IMG/VR virus record: IMGVR_UViG_3300003323_000541
Span: 35,902-99,901 of that record
DNA from: a virus
DNA length: 64,000 nt
Direction: 5' to 3' (one strand)
Shown: piece by piece, positions 1,265 to 64,000 of the stretch
How positions within the stretch are numbered: the stretch's first letter is position 1
Layout of the letters: every line of letters starts with the position of its first letter
The notes under the pieces: generated by a model
The model's database searches: none
Seen by the model: only the letters and a program-made list of their open reading frames with translations
Told to the model about the DNA's origin: nothing
Made by a program: the position numbers and the translations under genes

Positions 1265-2377
1265 ATGACAGTACAACAATTTGACAAAAACGGAGATTTA
1301 CTTGCAACTTACAACTCCATTGAACAAGCCTCAGGTTATACTAATATATCTGAGAGAAAAATCAAAAGATGTTTATCTGGTGAGCTACTTACTGGAGGAG
1401 GCTTTGTCTGGAAAAAGCAAGAAGATCTAGATGTCCAAGTTATTAATGGAGCTGATTTATTATCCTCTGAAGAATTTAAGAATTCTGTTAAACTTTCAAT
1501 CTACGACAATCAGAGCAGCTCTAAATTACAAAATATGACTACAGCAGAAACATTAAGACTATTTGAAGAATTTCTTGAATGGAAGAATGGTGGCTCACCT
1601 AAATCTTCCCCTGTAAACGGCGTTAAATGCGATCAGGAAGGACTTCATGTAGTAGCTGGATGTATACACCTACCAGCACATAATAAGCGCTTATATGACG
1701 CGTTTTTGAATCTGTTATCAGATGTTGATTCAGAATTAAAAGGAATTCATTTAATTGGTGATATTCTCGATTGTAACAATCTTTCTTCACATAGTTTAGG
1801 TAATATATCTTCTTCCACCTTGTCTGAGGAATATGAGCTTGCTAATAAAGCATTAGACATGTTAGATGAGGCTCTTCCTAAGGAAGTAGTAAAGAACTAT
1901 ATATGGGGTAACCATGAAGAAAGGTATACGCGTGTTACAGCTAAGGTGGACATGGCTAAATTTGGTGGAGCATTACTCTCCCCTACAATAGCTTGTAAAT
2001 TTAAAGAAAGAGGTTATAGCGTTCAAGAGAACTACACTGATGCATATATTTCATTAGGTAATTATCTTGATCTTATTCATGGTCAATATACTACAACTAA
2101 TCCAGCTAAGAAACACTTAGATGCTTATAAGAAATCTGTAATGTTTGCTCACACACATAAGATAGACTCTTATTTTGATGCAGACAAAGCTTCTTTTAAC
2201 ATCGGATGGATGGGTGATAAGGATCATAGTTACTTTAACTATGCTTCAAGAATCACCAAAGCAAGCTGGCAAAATGGATTCTCAATTGTACACATTGATT
2301 CTAATGGTTATTATCATGTTCAACAGATCCATTGGTATAATGATCGCTTTTATTACGGAGGTAAATGTTATAAATAA
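1265..2377 (+). CDS. NUMOD1 HTH domain fused to calcineurin-like metallophosphoesterase
   Basis: N-terminal VQQFDKNG..YNSIEQAS..GGGFVWK (NUMOD1-like); phosphoesterase motifs GCIH, GDILD, GNHE, HG, AHTH. Confidence 0.8.
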   Translation: MTVQQFDKNGDLLATYNSIEQASGYTNISERKIKRCLSGELLTGGGFVWKKQEDLDVQVINGADLLSSEEFKNSVKLSIYDNQSSSKLQNMTTAETLRLFEEFLEWKNGGSPKSSPVNGVKCDQEGLHVVAGCIHLPAHNKRLYDAFLNLLSDVDSELKGIHLIGDILDCNNLSSHSLGNISSSTLSEEYELANKALDMLDEALPKEVVKNYIWGNHEERYTRVTAKVDMAKFGGALLSPTIACKFKERGYSVQENYTDAYISLGNYLDLIHGQYTTTNPAKKHLDAYKKSVMFAHTHKIDSYFDADKASFNIGWMGDKDHSYFNYASRITKASWQNGFSIVHIDSNGYYHVQQIHWYNDRFYYGGKCYK

Positions 2378-57969: not shown

Positions 57970-58011
57970 TGTTTCAATTTATAATGTTAAAGTACTTTGT
58001 CCTCTTCATAG

Positions 58012-58084
58012 TACCCAGGAGTGGAATTGAACCACTGACCGCGAAGGTATAAGCTTCACATTCTAACCACTGAACTACCTGGGT
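58012..58084 (-). tRNA. tRNA-Ile(UAU)
   Basis: ACCCAGG/CCTGGGT acceptor, TGAAG-CTTATAC-CTTCG anticodon arm, AGTGG-TTCAATT-CCACT T arm; no encoded CCA. Confidence 0.9.
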
Positions 58085-59800: not shown

Positions 59801-59977
59801 TTATTTTATGTTATCTAATGGATAGGATTCTAAGATAGAATCTTCATCAACTGATTCACCTGGACAATTAAAATTAGTACAATCGTTGGTTGTATAAGCA
59901 TTCTCTGTAGCAGCTTTAAGAGCAGCTTCGAAGAAATTAGCTTTAAGTTTTTCCTCAGCTGTTGGTATTTTTTCCAT
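59801..59977 (-). CDS. Small hypothetical protein (58 aa, absent from ORF track)
   Basis: MEKIPTAEEKLKANFFEAALKAATENA..VDEDSILESYPLDNIK fills the gap in the operon. Confidence 0.6.
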   Translation of the reverse strand: MEKIPTAEEKLKANFFEAALKAATENAYTTNDCTNFNCPGESVDEDSILESYPLDNIK

Positions 59978-60793
59978 TTTTCACAATTTCAATTAGTTTT
60001 TCTAGACAAGCCTGCTTTGCTTCATTTCTCGTATGAAATGCATATTTTTTTTCAAATATAAGATTGTGAAGTTTCTCATGATTAAGATAGTTTCCAGGTA
60101 TATTTTGATAACATTCTTCAATTAAGTCACCAAATATATTGTTTGGATCTACAATTGATTCATTGTTTATGTCGGATATACCGTATGTCCAATAGGTTAA
60201 TGGATTATTTTTATACGGGTATTGCTTATACATCATACAGGGTAAATCAAAATTATCCTCAAACCAATCAAATGCTTGTTGCCAAAGTGGTGCATCTACA
60301 AATACATCTGAATCAGGATGATAAGCAAATGTTTTATCCTTATAATAACAACCTAAACATTCTTCATCAAAACCAAGCTCTTTAAGTTTTGGTATTTACA
60401 TCTCTCTTTGGACAAACGTCTTAACATATTTTGTATAACATCTGTCCAAAGAGATCGTAAATGTAAGTGTTCACATGATGTCCTGAATGGGAATCTTGTG
60501 TTCTAACATATGAGAGCTTTATCCTTAACTGGGTCTAGCTCTCTTTTATTTTAGGTGTGTTGTCCATTTTTTAGTATTTTAGATTAGAAAATATTAATAC
60601 GGCGTAAGCCCTCTTGTTAGAGAAAACTGGTAATTTTTAATAGACAAGGAGGACGCTTGAGCCCGCATGAAATGCGTGGGCGCTTGCATTCCTGTCTATG
60701 GGTATACCAGTACCTCTCTAACGGTCTGCTTGAAGCCCACGCTGTAATTTACAACCATCCTTTCAGGGCTTCGTAGGGGAATATATTGAGTAA

Positions 60794-61201
60794 ATGCGAT
60801 TATTTCTGTTTGTAGCCTTCTTCCTATCCTTAACTACTTTATACTCTCAATGTCCATCCTTTGAAAAGGTTACCAAAGAGGTTATAGATACCACTTGGAT
60901 GAAGGGTTTCGGCATACTTTTCACCAAAGACCTAAACGATGGATTAAAGGTGTTTCAATACTATAATCCCGAGTTTGATAAAGAATCGTTCTGGTATTTT
61001 ACATTCTATCCTAATGGATATTTATCTCACTTTGATATTCAAAATCCACGTAAAGAATACTTTCAGTGGATAAAGCAGTTTAATAAAGACAAAAATTATG
61101 TTTCTGTTGGTATAGATGAATGGGAGTGCGCTACTGCTCGCGTTAGAATTATTAATGATGGGACTACAAATTTTATTATAGTTCGATTTACTCAAAAATA
61201 A
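60794..61201 (+). CDS. IS passenger: secreted hypothetical protein
   Basis: Sec signal MRLFLFVAFFLSLTTLYS-Q. Confidence 0.65.
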   Translation: MRLFLFVAFFLSLTTLYSQCPSFEKVTKEVIDTTWMKGFGILFTKDLNDGLKVFQYYNPEFDKESFWYFTFYPNGYLSHFDIQNPRKEYFQWIKQFNKDKNYVSVGIDEWECATARVRIINDGTTNFIIVRFTQK

Positions 61202-61230
61202 GTATAGTTAAATCATTTAAAACAGGTATT

Positions 61231-61506
61231 ATGGATTACAATTTTGGAGAATTATTGAAGTCTTTAAATAGTGGAAATCATGATTTTAGAGTAACTGCAC
61301 TTAGAACTTGTTTACAAGTTGCAATAAGTAAAAATCAAGCACATTATTCAGCTCAGTTTGCTGATATTCTTGCAAGGATAGAAATAAGCGAATCCTTTTA
61401 TGAAGTTGCCCCAACCTTATTTATGAAAGATACCGATAAGCAATTTCATCGAGCGGCCTCAATATTGATAGAGATGAATGGTCTTTTAGCTATGAAAACT
61501 AATTAA
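61231..61506 (+). CDS. IS passenger: hypothetical protein
   Basis: 91-aa ORF co-oriented inside the IS. Confidence 0.55.
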   Translation: MDYNFGELLKSLNSGNHDFRVTALRTCLQVAISKNQAHYSAQFADILARIEISESFYEVAPTLFMKDTDKQFHRAASILIEMNGLLAMKTN

Positions 61507-61645
61507 AATCTCGAGTCGCACGAAGGCGACACGAAGATACAAGGGCACTTGTAGGGTTGCTATTCGTGCGTGATACAGTTGAGCGGACTTTACCGGGCCC
61601 TTGTTCTCGTGTCGTTACTAATTAGACGTTAATTATTGTTAGAGT

Positions 61646-61687
61646 AGCCTCATGTACAGAATAGTATATGGGGCTTTTCGTTTTTAT
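61646..61687 (+). terminator. Intrinsic terminator directly upstream of the transposase
   Basis: AGCCTCATGTAC-AGAATA-GTATATGGGGCT followed by TTTCGTTTTTAT. Confidence 0.65.
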
Positions 61688-61709
61688 CCTTTTAAGTTCT
61701 CATCAATTA

Positions 61710-62636
61710 ATGAATCATTTCAAAACTCTAAAAGAGTTAGAAAAGGTATTTAAAACAAACGACGATTGCTTGACGTATTTCGAGCAAATAAGATGGGCGG
61801 ACGGTATAACATGCCCGCATTGTGGTAGTACTAAATACTACACACTAGCTAAAGCCCATAACTTTAAATGTGCAAATAAGCATTGTTACAAAAAATTCAA
61901 TGTTCTAAAGAACACGATCTTTGAAAACACTAAAATCCCTTTACCTGCATGGTTTACGGCTATTTATATAGCAAGTTCCCATAAGAAGGGTATTAGCTCT
62001 GTACAACTCGCTAAAGATGTAGGTATAATTCAGCGTTCAAGCTGGTTTGTTATGCACCGCATTAGAGAGATGTTTAGAGAAGATAATGTGATCCAGTTTA
62101 AAGGTGAAATTGAAGCAGATGAAACCTATGTAGGTGGTAAAGCAGAGAACAAGCACAGATCAAAGAGGGTAAAGGGCGCACAAGGTCGCAGTATGAAAGT
62201 AAAGACCCCTGTTATGGGGATAATTGAACGTGGTGGAAGGATTGTAACCTTTCCTGTTACTTCATTAAGTTCAGCAGCGATTATACCTGTATTAACTAAG
62301 TATGTAACTCCTGATTCTACTATCTATTCAGATGAATGGAGCGGTTATAAGGATGTGCATCGTTCATTTCACCATGAGGTTATTAAGCATAAGAAAGACG
62401 AGTTTGTAAGAGGTAGAGCACATACAAATACAATCGAGGGTTATTGGAGCTTACTAAAGCGTGGAATATATGGTATATATCATCAAACAAGCTCTAAGCA
62501 TTTACACCGATATTGTGTAGAGTTTTCTTTCAGATATAATACCAGGAAGCTAACAGAGGAAGAAAGGTTCATAGAAGCCCTTAAAATGGCTTATGAGAAA
62601 CGTTTGAAGTATCAAGATTTGATTAAAAAAGCGTAG
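61710..62636 (+). CDS. tnp: IS1595-family (ISXO2-like) DDE transposase (ATG 61710; ORF track start 61668)
   Basis: CPHC..CANKHC zinc ribbon, HTH, EADETYVGG, YSDEW, HTNTIEGYW, Y..EF.FRYN. Confidence 0.93.
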   Translation: MNHFKTLKELEKVFKTNDDCLTYFEQIRWADGITCPHCGSTKYYTLAKAHNFKCANKHCYKKFNVLKNTIFENTKIPLPAWFTAIYIASSHKKGISSVQLAKDVGIIQRSSWFVMHRIREMFREDNVIQFKGEIEADETYVGGKAENKHRSKRVKGAQGRSMKVKTPVMGIIERGGRIVTFPVTSLSSAAIIPVLTKYVTPDSTIYSDEWSGYKDVHRSFHHEVIKHKKDEFVRGRAHTNTIEGYWSLLKRGIYGIYHQTSSKHLHRYCVEFSFRYNTRKLTEEERFIEALKMAYEKRLKYQDLIKKA

Positions 62637-62649
62637 ATTAGACAAATAA

Positions 62650-62780
62650 GCCGGAATAGCTCAGTATAAATCTAGAAAATACAATCCTCAGACTTCCAAT
62701 TTGACTGATTGTATAAAGATTAGGTAGAGCGCCAACCCTAATTGGTTCGGAGGTCGCGAGTTCGAGTCTCGTTTCCGGCT
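62650..62780 (+). ncRNA. tRNA-like RNA inside the IS, with ~56-nt hairpin inserted in the D-loop and a distorted anticodon arm
   Basis: GCCGGAA/TTCCGGC acceptor, TAGCTCAGT..GGTAGAGC D arm, AGGTC, GCGAG-TTCGAGT-CTCGT T arm. Confidence 0.75.
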
Positions 62781-62949
62781 TTTTGTTTAATTATCTTTGC
62801 CCAAAGAAAAAGAAGGGCTGAATGAACGGGAGTAAAGTAATCTCATTAGTGAAATGCTCAATTTGGATATATTCAGCCCTTGGATTTGTCCAAAGAGAGA
62901 TGTAGGTGCCTAAGTTTTAATACTAATTCATATGTTACAAATTGTTCTT

Positions 62950-63297
62950 TCATGGTACTAGTTTTAATGCTTCTTTCAAACCTACTTCAAGAGCTTCTTC
63001 ATAGTTTGTAAAAGGCTTTGTATAGGGGCCTCGATGATATTTATAACCAAATTTTCTCCAGCCTATATACCAGTCATTTCTTACTCCTCCTCTATCAACA
63101 TCAATGTCAATCTCATGAACCTCTCTCAACCATTTCTGAAGTAATGATTGCGTCGGAGCAGCTGGAAATAGTTCTGAAGCTCCTTTTTGCAACTCAGTAA
63201 TTCCGTTAAAATCAGTATATCTCCATTTGCAATACTCTTTATATCCTTTTTCTTTAGCTAATTTAGCTGTTGAATAAGTTATTCTTTGTTCTTCCAT
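62950..63297 (-). CDS. Hypothetical phage protein, paralogue of the IS-disrupted gene
   Basis: TY..AKL.KEKG..APTQSLLQKWLRE..YEEALE. Confidence 0.7.
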   Translation of the reverse strand: MEEQRITYSTAKLAKEKGYKEYCKWRYTDFNGITELQKGASELFPAAPTQSLLQKWLREVHEIDIDVDRGGVRNDWYIGWRKFGYKYHRGPYTKPFTNYEEALEVGLKEALKLVP

Positions 63298-63943: not shown

Positions 63944-64000
63944 TACCCCAGACGGGAATCGAACCCGTGCGCCTGTGAGGGCACAGGATTTTAAGTCCTG
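63944..64000 (-). tRNA. tRNA-Leu(UAA), 5' part outside the window
   Basis: CAGGA-CTTAAAA-TCCTG anticodon arm, long variable arm, ACGGG-TTCGATT-CCCGT T arm, CTGGGGT-A acceptor 3' strand. Confidence 0.85.

Follow-up and report, generated by a model that had tools for sequence, protein, structure and literature searches.

How does a transposon that carries a secreted-protein gene and a series of structured RNAs come to lie within a phage gene, and what might its RNAs do there? The question is raised by an element of 2520 bp that occupies positions 60391-62910 of a 64,000-nt stretch of the IMG/VR virus record IMGVR_UViG_3300003323_000541 (hereafter the window, to which all coordinates refer), as delimited by sequence reading, a repeat finder and a boundary script. 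The answer that we consider probable is that of a transporter insertion sequence (IS) of the IS1595 family lodged in a phage gene, with a passenger cassette headed by a leader RNA, here called R1, and with RNAs that mostly serve the cargo. The main interest of the locus is in the R1 leader family and in a tRNA-Gly mimic with a hairpin in its D-loop.

The first step concerns the ends of the element and the gene that it interrupts, for which the following features were located:

60383-60390, no strand: left copy of the target-site duplication, TAAGTTTT, identical to 62911-62918
60391-60416, plus strand: left terminal inverted repeat (IRL), starting with GG, GGTATTTACATCTCTCTTTGGACAAA
60438-60465, minus strand: third, subterminal copy of the inverted repeat (IR), in inverted orientation, detected by the repeat finder and forming with IRL a hairpin with a 12-bp core
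62885-62910, minus strand: right terminal inverted repeat (IRR), reverse complement GGCACCTACATCTCTCTTTGGACAAA, starting with GG
62911-62918, no strand: right copy of the target-site duplication, TAAGTTTT
62919-62953, minus strand: start of the interrupted phage gene, from the ATG at 62953 through the codons for MKEQFVTYELV to the second base of codon 12
59955-60390, minus strand: remainder of the interrupted phage gene, from codon 13 to its end

The terminal repeats of 26 bp and the perfect 8-bp duplication (8/8) that a preliminary description of the locus had reported are confirmed; the two repeats are identical at 21 of 26 positions. That description had also regarded the target gene as cleanly restorable, and excision of the element together with one octamer indeed fuses 62953-62919 to 60390-59955 on the minus strand into an open frame of 156 amino acids (aa). 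The restored frame begins MKEQFVTYELVLKLKELGFDEECLGCYYKD and aligns from residue 1, over its first 30 residues, with uninterrupted homologues in other viral contigs (L230, MNKEFIPYEQALSLKELGFNESCLGCYYKDKTFAYHPDSD..., and L231, MKEQFIPYELALELKNLGFDE...), which its N-terminus matches; the duplication copy at 62911-62918 that adjoins the gene start carries the frame on to L-K-L. At the left end, the segment 60391-60470 folds with -22.7 kcal/mol (z -5.0). The third IR copy, 21 nt inside IRL, gives this end the appearance of a 75-bp mini-element (IRL-spacer-IRR', 60391-60465); an extra transposase site and a relic are the candidate roles for this copy.

These ends bear on a rival explanation of the locus, an assembly chimera of phage and bacterial IS DNA. 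It could be invoked because the element occurs as a single copy, and because the two records that contain it (100,003 and 99,901 bp) may share source data. A chimera is nevertheless very unlikely, since the repeats are canonical, a perfect duplication lies just outside them and the target frame is restored in phase up to a conserved N-terminus; the GC content, moreover, is continuous. The insertion is plausibly recent. The element is present once in the 99,901-bp virus record, and further copies were found neither in IMG/VR nor in JGI metagenomes or GTDB representatives: megablast against phages did not find a second copy, exact-word peptide scans of IMG/VR and GTDB genomes detected no further one, and a search of IMG/VR with a 19-mer of the IR gave no match. 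The sole 19-mer match in JGI metagenomes (L163) sits within a glycosyltransferase ORF (open reading frame) and was dismissed as a chance match.

What kind of element this is follows from its transposase and from the relatives of the latter:

61710-62636, plus strand: IS1595-family DDE transposase, 308 aa, intact, recognized by Pfam and alignment

The ORF extends over 61668-62636, and the likely start is M15 at 61710, the same start as in the protein-database form P0001. The enzyme, described as intact from the outset, matches PF12762 (DDE_Tnp_IS1595) with an E-value of 4.5e-44 and 150.6 bits at a cut-off of 27, and its N-terminal zinc ribbon matches PF12760 (E 8.8e-13). In an alignment with 22 relatives, C35, C38, C54 and C59 are invariant, as are D137, D208 and K250, whereas E243 is nearly so (23 sequences). 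From family knowledge, we take D137, D208, E243 and K250 to be the catalytic residues, and the resulting D-D-E...K pattern fits the DDEK-type subgroups of ISfinder. The closest transposase among 5.8 billion proteins is 58% identical (P0002), followed by P0004 with 56%. A profile search yielded 160 related loci with transposases of 31-49% identity, and 89 of the 162 related loci given to the boundary script could be bounded through IRs of the same GG-starting type (GGnAnnTAnAT...GGACAAA; GGnAAnTATATAC...ACA) and 8-bp duplications. These bounded relatives are 1445-5778 bp long and carry 0.5-4.8 kb of passenger DNA; since the transposase gene itself takes up only ~0.9 kb, passenger DNA located 5' or 3' of the transposase is the rule in this clade. 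The small coding share of the transposase in the window element (~930 of 2520 bp), to which attention had been drawn, is thus not unusual.

IS1595 groups that carry passengers have been named transporter ISs (tIS; Siguier, Gagnevin and Chandler, Res Microbiol 2009, cited in PMC3129680). The window element resembles tIS in its single DDE transposase with an N-terminal zinc ribbon and an IS1595 catalytic domain, in its GG-starting IRs and 8-bp duplication, and in passenger genes unrelated to transposition between the IRs, here p135 and p91 between IRL and the transposase. It differs from other tIS in that it sits in a probably crAss-like phage, its closest transposase is just 58% identical, a structured RNA that is apparently uncatalogued heads its cassette, and the transposase gene is followed by one that resembles a tRNA. 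The element is an IS1595-family transporter IS; the class is known, the element so far unique.

Two passenger genes, one of them encoding a secreted protein, had been anticipated, and both are present:

60794-61201, plus strand: passenger gene p135, small secreted protein of 135 aa with a predicted signal peptide ending ...LYS/Q
61231-61506, plus strand: passenger gene p91, small helical protein of 91 aa

The LYS/Q junction is, judged by the protein sequence, a Bacteroidota-type cleavage context. p135 has no Pfam or PHROG match and no sequence homologue in a word-indexed search; its look-alikes by language model and structure are small hypothetical proteins or lipoproteins of Bacteroidota, which provides a lead only. 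For p91, one homologue was found on a short JGI contig (P0122, 87 aa, 52% identity, E 7e-21), and a resemblance to short helical-repeat (HEAT-like) proteins is likewise a lead only. BLAST and tblastn comparisons of all non-transposase segments with the 160 related loci gave no match.

Apart from genes, the element had been described as containing at least five structured segments, and the five that were listed all fold better than shuffled controls, with z-scores of -4.2 (60612-60775), -3.4 (61510-61620), -5.4 (61640-61695), -2.6 (62648-62785) and -3.1 on the plus or -4.4 on the minus strand (62805-62885). The first of them is the R1 leader, which is composed as follows:

60601-60772, plus strand: R1-family leader RNA, established by BLAST, covariance model and folding, without Rfam match
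60601-60610, plus strand: small 5' hairpin, GGC-GUAA-GCC in the window (family consensus AAGC-GUUA-GCUU)
60614-60724, plus strand: long interrupted hairpin
60651-60658 with 60672-60681, plus strand: apical hairpin
60674-60681 (GCGUGGGC) with 60735-60742 (GCCCACGC), plus strand: alternative helix
60733-60769, plus strand: distal hairpin
60743-60750, plus strand: degenerate U-tract, in place of which the family has UUUUUUAUUU after the tail sequence

When the whole element was compared by BLAST with 401 Bacteroidales genomes, the segment 60601-60772 was matched in two of them. The window leader and the two genomic homologues have invariant blocks in common and differ by compensatory changes in the outer stem, and from these three sequences the covariance model R1 was built. 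Of 151 Bacteroidales genomes sampled, 50 contain matches to the model, and a single genome can have as many as 18; beyond this order, matches were found in Flavobacterium, in a Saprospirales metagenome-assembled genome (MAG) and on a Rhizosphaericola (Chitinophagaceae) plasmid, and a further one in a Rikenellaceae MAG. In draft genomes, many copies lie within a few hundred bases of contig ends. Among 36 aligned copies (the L195-L228 set), 91.7% of the cells are paired, as compared to 36-46% when the partners are slid; double changes occur in 27 of 37 pairs, and in one helix of 7 bp, which is 100% paired, each of the seven pairs covaries. The alternative helix, which uses the 3' strand of the apical hairpin, is 94.8% paired versus 22-62% in slid controls and includes four covarying pairs. 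A further pairing is open to the tail and the U-tract, with the A-rich strand that forms the 5' side of the small hairpin. For the window copy, upstream strand and tail together give -9.6 kcal/mol, compared to about -5 kcal/mol for cross-combinations with other copies, and several copies have matched changes.

The R1 leader thus belongs to a large, strongly covarying RNA family without an entry in Rfam 15, and is apparently uncatalogued: cmscan returned no match at E<=1 for the window and the two homologous loci, or at E<=10 for 20 R1 loci. The families compared with the leader included sRNA-Xcc1 (RF02221) and the Bacteroides motifs. For the structured RNAs of the element, YrlA/Y-RNA, tmRNA and sRNA-Xcc1 were rejected for want of an Rfam match, and an attC site was rejected for the hairpins, in which the R boxes are not in the required order. 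One structure in the neighbourhood of R1 copies did match Rfam: at L208:1392-1460 (minus strand), a DUF805 RNA motif (RF03081, 79 bits) lies between the R1 leader and the downstream region, giving tandem structured leaders, and a DUF805b match near threshold was seen at L200:2680-2714.

Conserved pairings that exclude each other, with a U-tract at their end, typically mark a switch or attenuator. A comparable arrangement has recently been shown for the zipper-type transcription attenuator cATTpLS20 of Gram-positive conjugative plasmids of the pLS20 family (PMC13401043). In both, a weak small hairpin comes before a long imperfect stem-loop and a U-tract element after it, and complementary upstream and downstream flanks could extend the long stem; both lead genes of mobile elements. 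In contrast to cATTpLS20, R1 has a length of ~170 nt rather than 456 nt, occurs in another phylum and has no sequence relationship to it; its competing helix involves the 3' strand of the apical hairpin, and the U-tract of the window copy is degenerate. The likeness appears to be one of design, not of family membership.

In 33 of the 36 copies, an ORF starts 11-93 nt (median ~48) past the leader, and 23 of these 33 ORFs, which are otherwise unrelated, encode an N-terminal hydrophobic signal or anchor segment. A -7-type box (TAnnTTTG/A) is found within 130 nt upstream of 29 of 36 copies, in AT-rich DNA for which the chance level is uncontrolled. Whether R1 might act as DNA instead, as a recombination or cassette-junction site or as a protein-bound palindrome, can be judged from these data. 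R1 separates genes in the manner of a cassette boundary, occurs in multiple copies, often near the ends of draft contigs, and consists mostly of inverted repeats. However, the alignment columns 27/203, 29/201, 30/200 and 105/168 are mostly U-G, pairs that would be mismatches on the opposite strand or in duplex DNA; R1 always points in the direction of the ORF behind it, is preceded by a -7-type box and followed by a U-tract, and lacks integron attC-type R boxes in the required order. Since strand-specific U-G pairs are frequent and the orientation always matches the downstream gene, R1 would work as an RNA and not as duplex DNA, and a role at the DNA level is quite improbable.

How closely is R1 tied to the transposon? 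A search of the 160 IS1595-related loci gave eight matches, five within bounded elements (L008, L096, L142, L147 and L156) and three beside transposases with undefined element ends (L011, L025 and L029). In all eight, R1 lies directly before a small gene, which codes for a membrane, lipo- or secreted protein in seven (the exception being L025), and its position and strand relative to the transposase differ between elements. Only 1 of 34 chromosomal R1 copies has an IS1595-like gene within 1.5 kb. An origin of the chromosomal copies from miniature inverted-repeat transposable elements was discarded, as IS1595-type IRs or a transposase are absent nearby except at L207. The idea that the RNA modules travel with this transposase clade is accordingly only partly borne out: it holds for R1, and fails for the hairpin at 61517-61615 and the tRNA-like RNA, which were not found in the relatives.

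The preliminary description had gone further and seen in the element an undescribed, RNA-rich and RNA-regulated transposon subtype. On such a view, the RNAs would belong to the transposition machinery and guide, license or regulate the transposase. R1 does recur and is enriched inside IS1595 elements, irregular tRNA-like RNAs were seen in 3 of 90 bounded elements, and the transposase start follows right behind a terminator without an obvious promoter, so that read-through of leader and terminator could set transposase levels. On the other hand, R1 may lie upstream or downstream of the transposase and on either strand, yet it keeps a fixed ~50 nt before the cargo ORF; the majority of its copies are on chromosomes, with no transposase in the vicinity, ~84 of 90 bounded relatives do without it in their transposition, and the other RNAs are not common to the relatives. 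Transposition by the DDE enzymes of this family relies on IRs, which are canonical here, as is the duplication. The data give no indication of RNA-guided or RNA-regulated transposition, an RNA-regulated subtype is unlikely, and the claim of novelty does not stand either: cargo is the rule in the 89 relatives, tIS have been described, one of the RNAs is a terminator and another probably so, and R1 is mainly chromosomal. As the chromosomal copies are mostly without a transposase, R1 is better seen as a signal for cargo expression than as a transposition factor. On the simplest reading, Bacteroidota use R1 generally as a signal for the expression of small exported proteins, and cassettes of leader plus gene are typical cargo of IS1595 elements.

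Between the cargo and the transposase, and behind the latter, three further hairpins are found:

61517-61618, plus strand: long imperfect orphan hairpin of ~95 nt after the p91 stop codon, 53% GC
61646-61687, plus strand: intrinsic terminator with a 12-bp stem and a 6-nt loop, followed by TTTCGTTTTT
62813-62881, minus strand: hairpin closed by 11 bp, probable terminator, followed on the minus strand by CUUCUUUUUCU

The segment 61646-61687 has the sequence layout of a textbook intrinsic terminator and would close the passenger operon; its T-tract ends 23 nt before the transposase ATG. In the window stretch 61620-61709, between this terminator and the ATG, the Bacteroidota -7 box (TAnnTTTG) is not visible, so that expression of the transposase may depend on read-through from the cargo promoter. 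The hairpin at 62813-62881 folds with -19.9 kcal/mol on the minus strand and was missed by a simple terminator scan because its loop exceeds 8 nt. It is well placed to stop antisense phage transcription through the transposase, as the interrupted gene is transcribed on the minus strand from 62953, and a terminator role against incoming phage transcription is probable from its sequence. The orphan hairpin folds with -43.7 kcal/mol (61510-61620); neither BLAST nor the single-sequence model R2, applied to 87 loci and 151 genomes, yielded a relative of the segment 61517-61615.

The remaining structured segment follows the transposase gene:

62650-62780, plus strand: tRNA-like RNA derived from tRNA-Gly, recognized by the Rfam tRNA model and folding, with a T-run after it

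The Rfam tRNA model (RF00005) scores 34.2 bits, as compared to a gathering threshold of 29, when 61 nt are treated as a D-loop insertion; ARAGORN finds no tRNA at 62650-62780, even with introns allowed. The insert is a 56-nt three-part hairpin at about 62667-62722. The nearest relatives of this RNA are Bacteroidales tRNA-Gly(GCC/UCC), to which the D stem, variable loop, T arm and six of seven acceptor pairs are nearly identical. Unlike these, it has C3:G70 in place of G3:C70, the 56-nt D-loop hairpin and a 19-nt anticodon arm, which has a bulged C and a 6-nt loop, CUAAUU, and lacks a GCC or UCC anticodon. A tRNA that functions in decoding would be expected to have a 7-nt anticodon loop closed by a 5-bp stem and a normal D-loop, and to be recognized by gene finders; this RNA shows none of these traits, and the irregular anticodon arm makes decoding doubtful.

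A second RNA of this layout exists. In 151 genomes and 87 IS loci, the single-sequence model R3 detected ordinary tRNAs of 78-80 nt only, with one exception, a 121-nt tRNA-like RNA at L250:2001-2121 (plus strand; G117:C46:130384-130504). In this look-alike, the D-loop hairpin is inserted at the corresponding place, between similar entry and exit bases, the ATAAGCC lead-in is the same and the anticodon arm, of 4 bp and 9 nt, is irregular; the RNA lies 217 nt from a contig end and adjoins a gene for a HipA-like toxin (L250:70-1323, minus strand) and one for an XRE-type (HipB-like) antitoxin (1326-1691, minus strand). In two of the 89 related elements, L153 and L041, a motif scan revealed irregular tRNA-like RNAs of other kinds: at L153:2915-2979 (plus strand), a 65-nt miniature with G3:U70, that is, an alanine-type acceptor, and at L041:6686-6798 (minus strand), a 113-nt form with a long extended anticodon arm directly inside IRR.

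Irregular tRNAs, namely allo-tRNAs and "E-loop" tRNAs, have been reported near transposons and toxin-antitoxin genes (Mukai et al., Nucleic Acids Res 2017, PMC5389517). Like these, the window RNA combines a non-canonical cloverleaf with an extra hairpin on mobile DNA, and its U73 and Gly-like body recall a U73 E-loop tRNA that the glycyl-tRNA synthetase of E. coli failed to charge (PMC5389517). Unlike allo-tRNAs, which have 8/4 or 9/3 acceptor/T architectures, it has the ordinary 7/5 architecture, and unlike the irregular tRNAs of that study it has its extra hairpin in the D-loop and a 6-nt anticodon loop.

Alternatively, the segments other than the terminators could be functionless relics: a tRNA-Gly pseudogene hit by a small insertion, and, at 61517-61615, a chance or remnant palindrome. 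The rejection by ARAGORN, the 19-nt arm with its 6-nt loop and the swap of G3:C70 to C3:G70 would fit such a history, as would the orphan hairpin without a relative anywhere searched. Yet all four stems of the cloverleaf are intact, the changed acceptor pair is compensated, the 56-nt insert is a clean hairpin, and an independent Bacteroidales locus (G117) has the same layout; the tRNA-like RNA (44% GC) and the hairpin (53% GC) are islands in DNA of 35% GC, and no decay is seen in the remainder of the element. Taken together, we regard the relic explanation as rather doubtful.

From the anatomy, the family memberships, the covariation and the recurrence described above, we infer the following functional picture. 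An IS1595-family DDE transposon, which moves passenger DNA between its IRs, has inserted into codons 12-15, near the 5' end of a small non-structural gene of a ~100-kb phage, generating the 8-bp duplication. Its passenger module is a Bacteroidota-type cassette of R1 leader, p135, p91, orphan hairpin and intrinsic terminator. The R1 leader may act in cis as a conformational switch or attenuator, with three competing pairings: the apical hairpin itself, a helix of its 3' strand with the tail that precedes the U-tract, and one in which tail and U-tract are bound by the A-rich strand upstream. The choice among them would decide whether transcription or translation enters the cargo ~45 nt downstream. 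The hairpins at 61646-61687 and 62813-62881 would insulate the transposase from cargo and phage transcription, respectively. The tRNA-like RNA, 13 nt past the transposase stop, might, with low confidence, serve the 3' end of the transposase transcript as a handle for processing or stability, or as a decoy.

Several points weigh against this picture of RNAs in the service of the cargo. R1 occurs in ~6 copies in ~0.27 Mb of IS cargo as compared to ~0.3 per Mb of Bacteroidales genome (a rough estimate), and this enrichment may point to a link with the transposon beyond that of a typical cargo signal. The paired fractions are biased upwards, since the R1 alignment (A5) had been fitted to the structure of the model; the slid controls offset this in part, and the conserved fold is secure because the gap to these controls is large and many pair types occur. 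The window leader has the U-tract TGTAATTT instead of the clean TTTTTTATTT of the family, and attenuation may therefore be weak in this copy. The exact element is found in one genome only, so that covariation can be tested for the R1 leader alone, and the tRNA-like RNA could be a decaying pseudogene. A more far-reaching view, which we put forward tentatively, is that the IS1595 tIS of Bacteroidota are vehicles for a modular RNA toolkit: R1, as a zipper-like switch, would gate whatever gene for a small secreted or membrane protein follows it and, by read-through, the transposase, irregular tRNA-shaped RNAs would serve as handles, decoys or translation modifiers, and a lytic crAss-like phage would thereby gain a host-regulated "moron" cassette.

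The recipient of the insertion is a virus whose 99,901-bp record has direct terminal repeats and carries an ORF of 4684 aa. Its family-B DNA polymerase has only 31% identity to the nearest relative, from Cellulophaga phage phi14:2, a cultured crAss-like phage. Judged on genome size, terminal repeats and polymerase, it is reasonable to consider the phage crAss-like, though distant. The leader, which is of Bacteroidota type, the tRNA-Gly body and the relatives of the transposase alike indicate a host among the Bacteroidota. The prolonged intracellular persistence that an IS in such a genome had seemed to suggest is not required, as transposition into a replicating phage genome would give the same result. 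IS1595-type transposases were found on at least 84 IMG/VR contigs, many of which may be prophages, and comparison of DNA polymerases revealed no relationship between the window phage and the viral contigs with R1-bearing ISs.

Around the element, the upstream neighbour at 62950-63297 (minus strand), which matches phrog_12005 (unknown function), is a paralogue of the interrupted gene; both have an N-terminal M-(K/E)-E-Q-x-(V/I)-T-Y and a C-terminal EEA...L-x-K/E-x-L motif, and two homologues of the pair occur in a single 180-kb viral contig (L231, L233). A tRNA-Ile(UAU) is located at 58011-58084 (minus strand), on the other side of the element region, and a tRNA at 63944-64000 (minus strand, Rfam 30.3 bits) is cut by the window edge. 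In L077, the start of a 97-kb viral contig, a tRNA-Ile(UAU) lies 230 nt past a truncated IS1595-type transposase gene.

As a transposon, the element is ordinary. The locus is, however, a clean example of a DDE transposon that has jumped into a probably crAss-like phage with a host-style secreted-protein cassette, which is one route by which such phages can acquire accessory genes. It also led to R1, a covarying, switch-like family that is found in a third of the sampled Bacteroidales, before genes for small exported proteins, on chromosomes as well as on mobile elements. The D-loop hairpin on a tRNA-Gly body, finally, represents a second architecture among the irregular tRNAs that travel with transposons and toxin-antitoxin genes.

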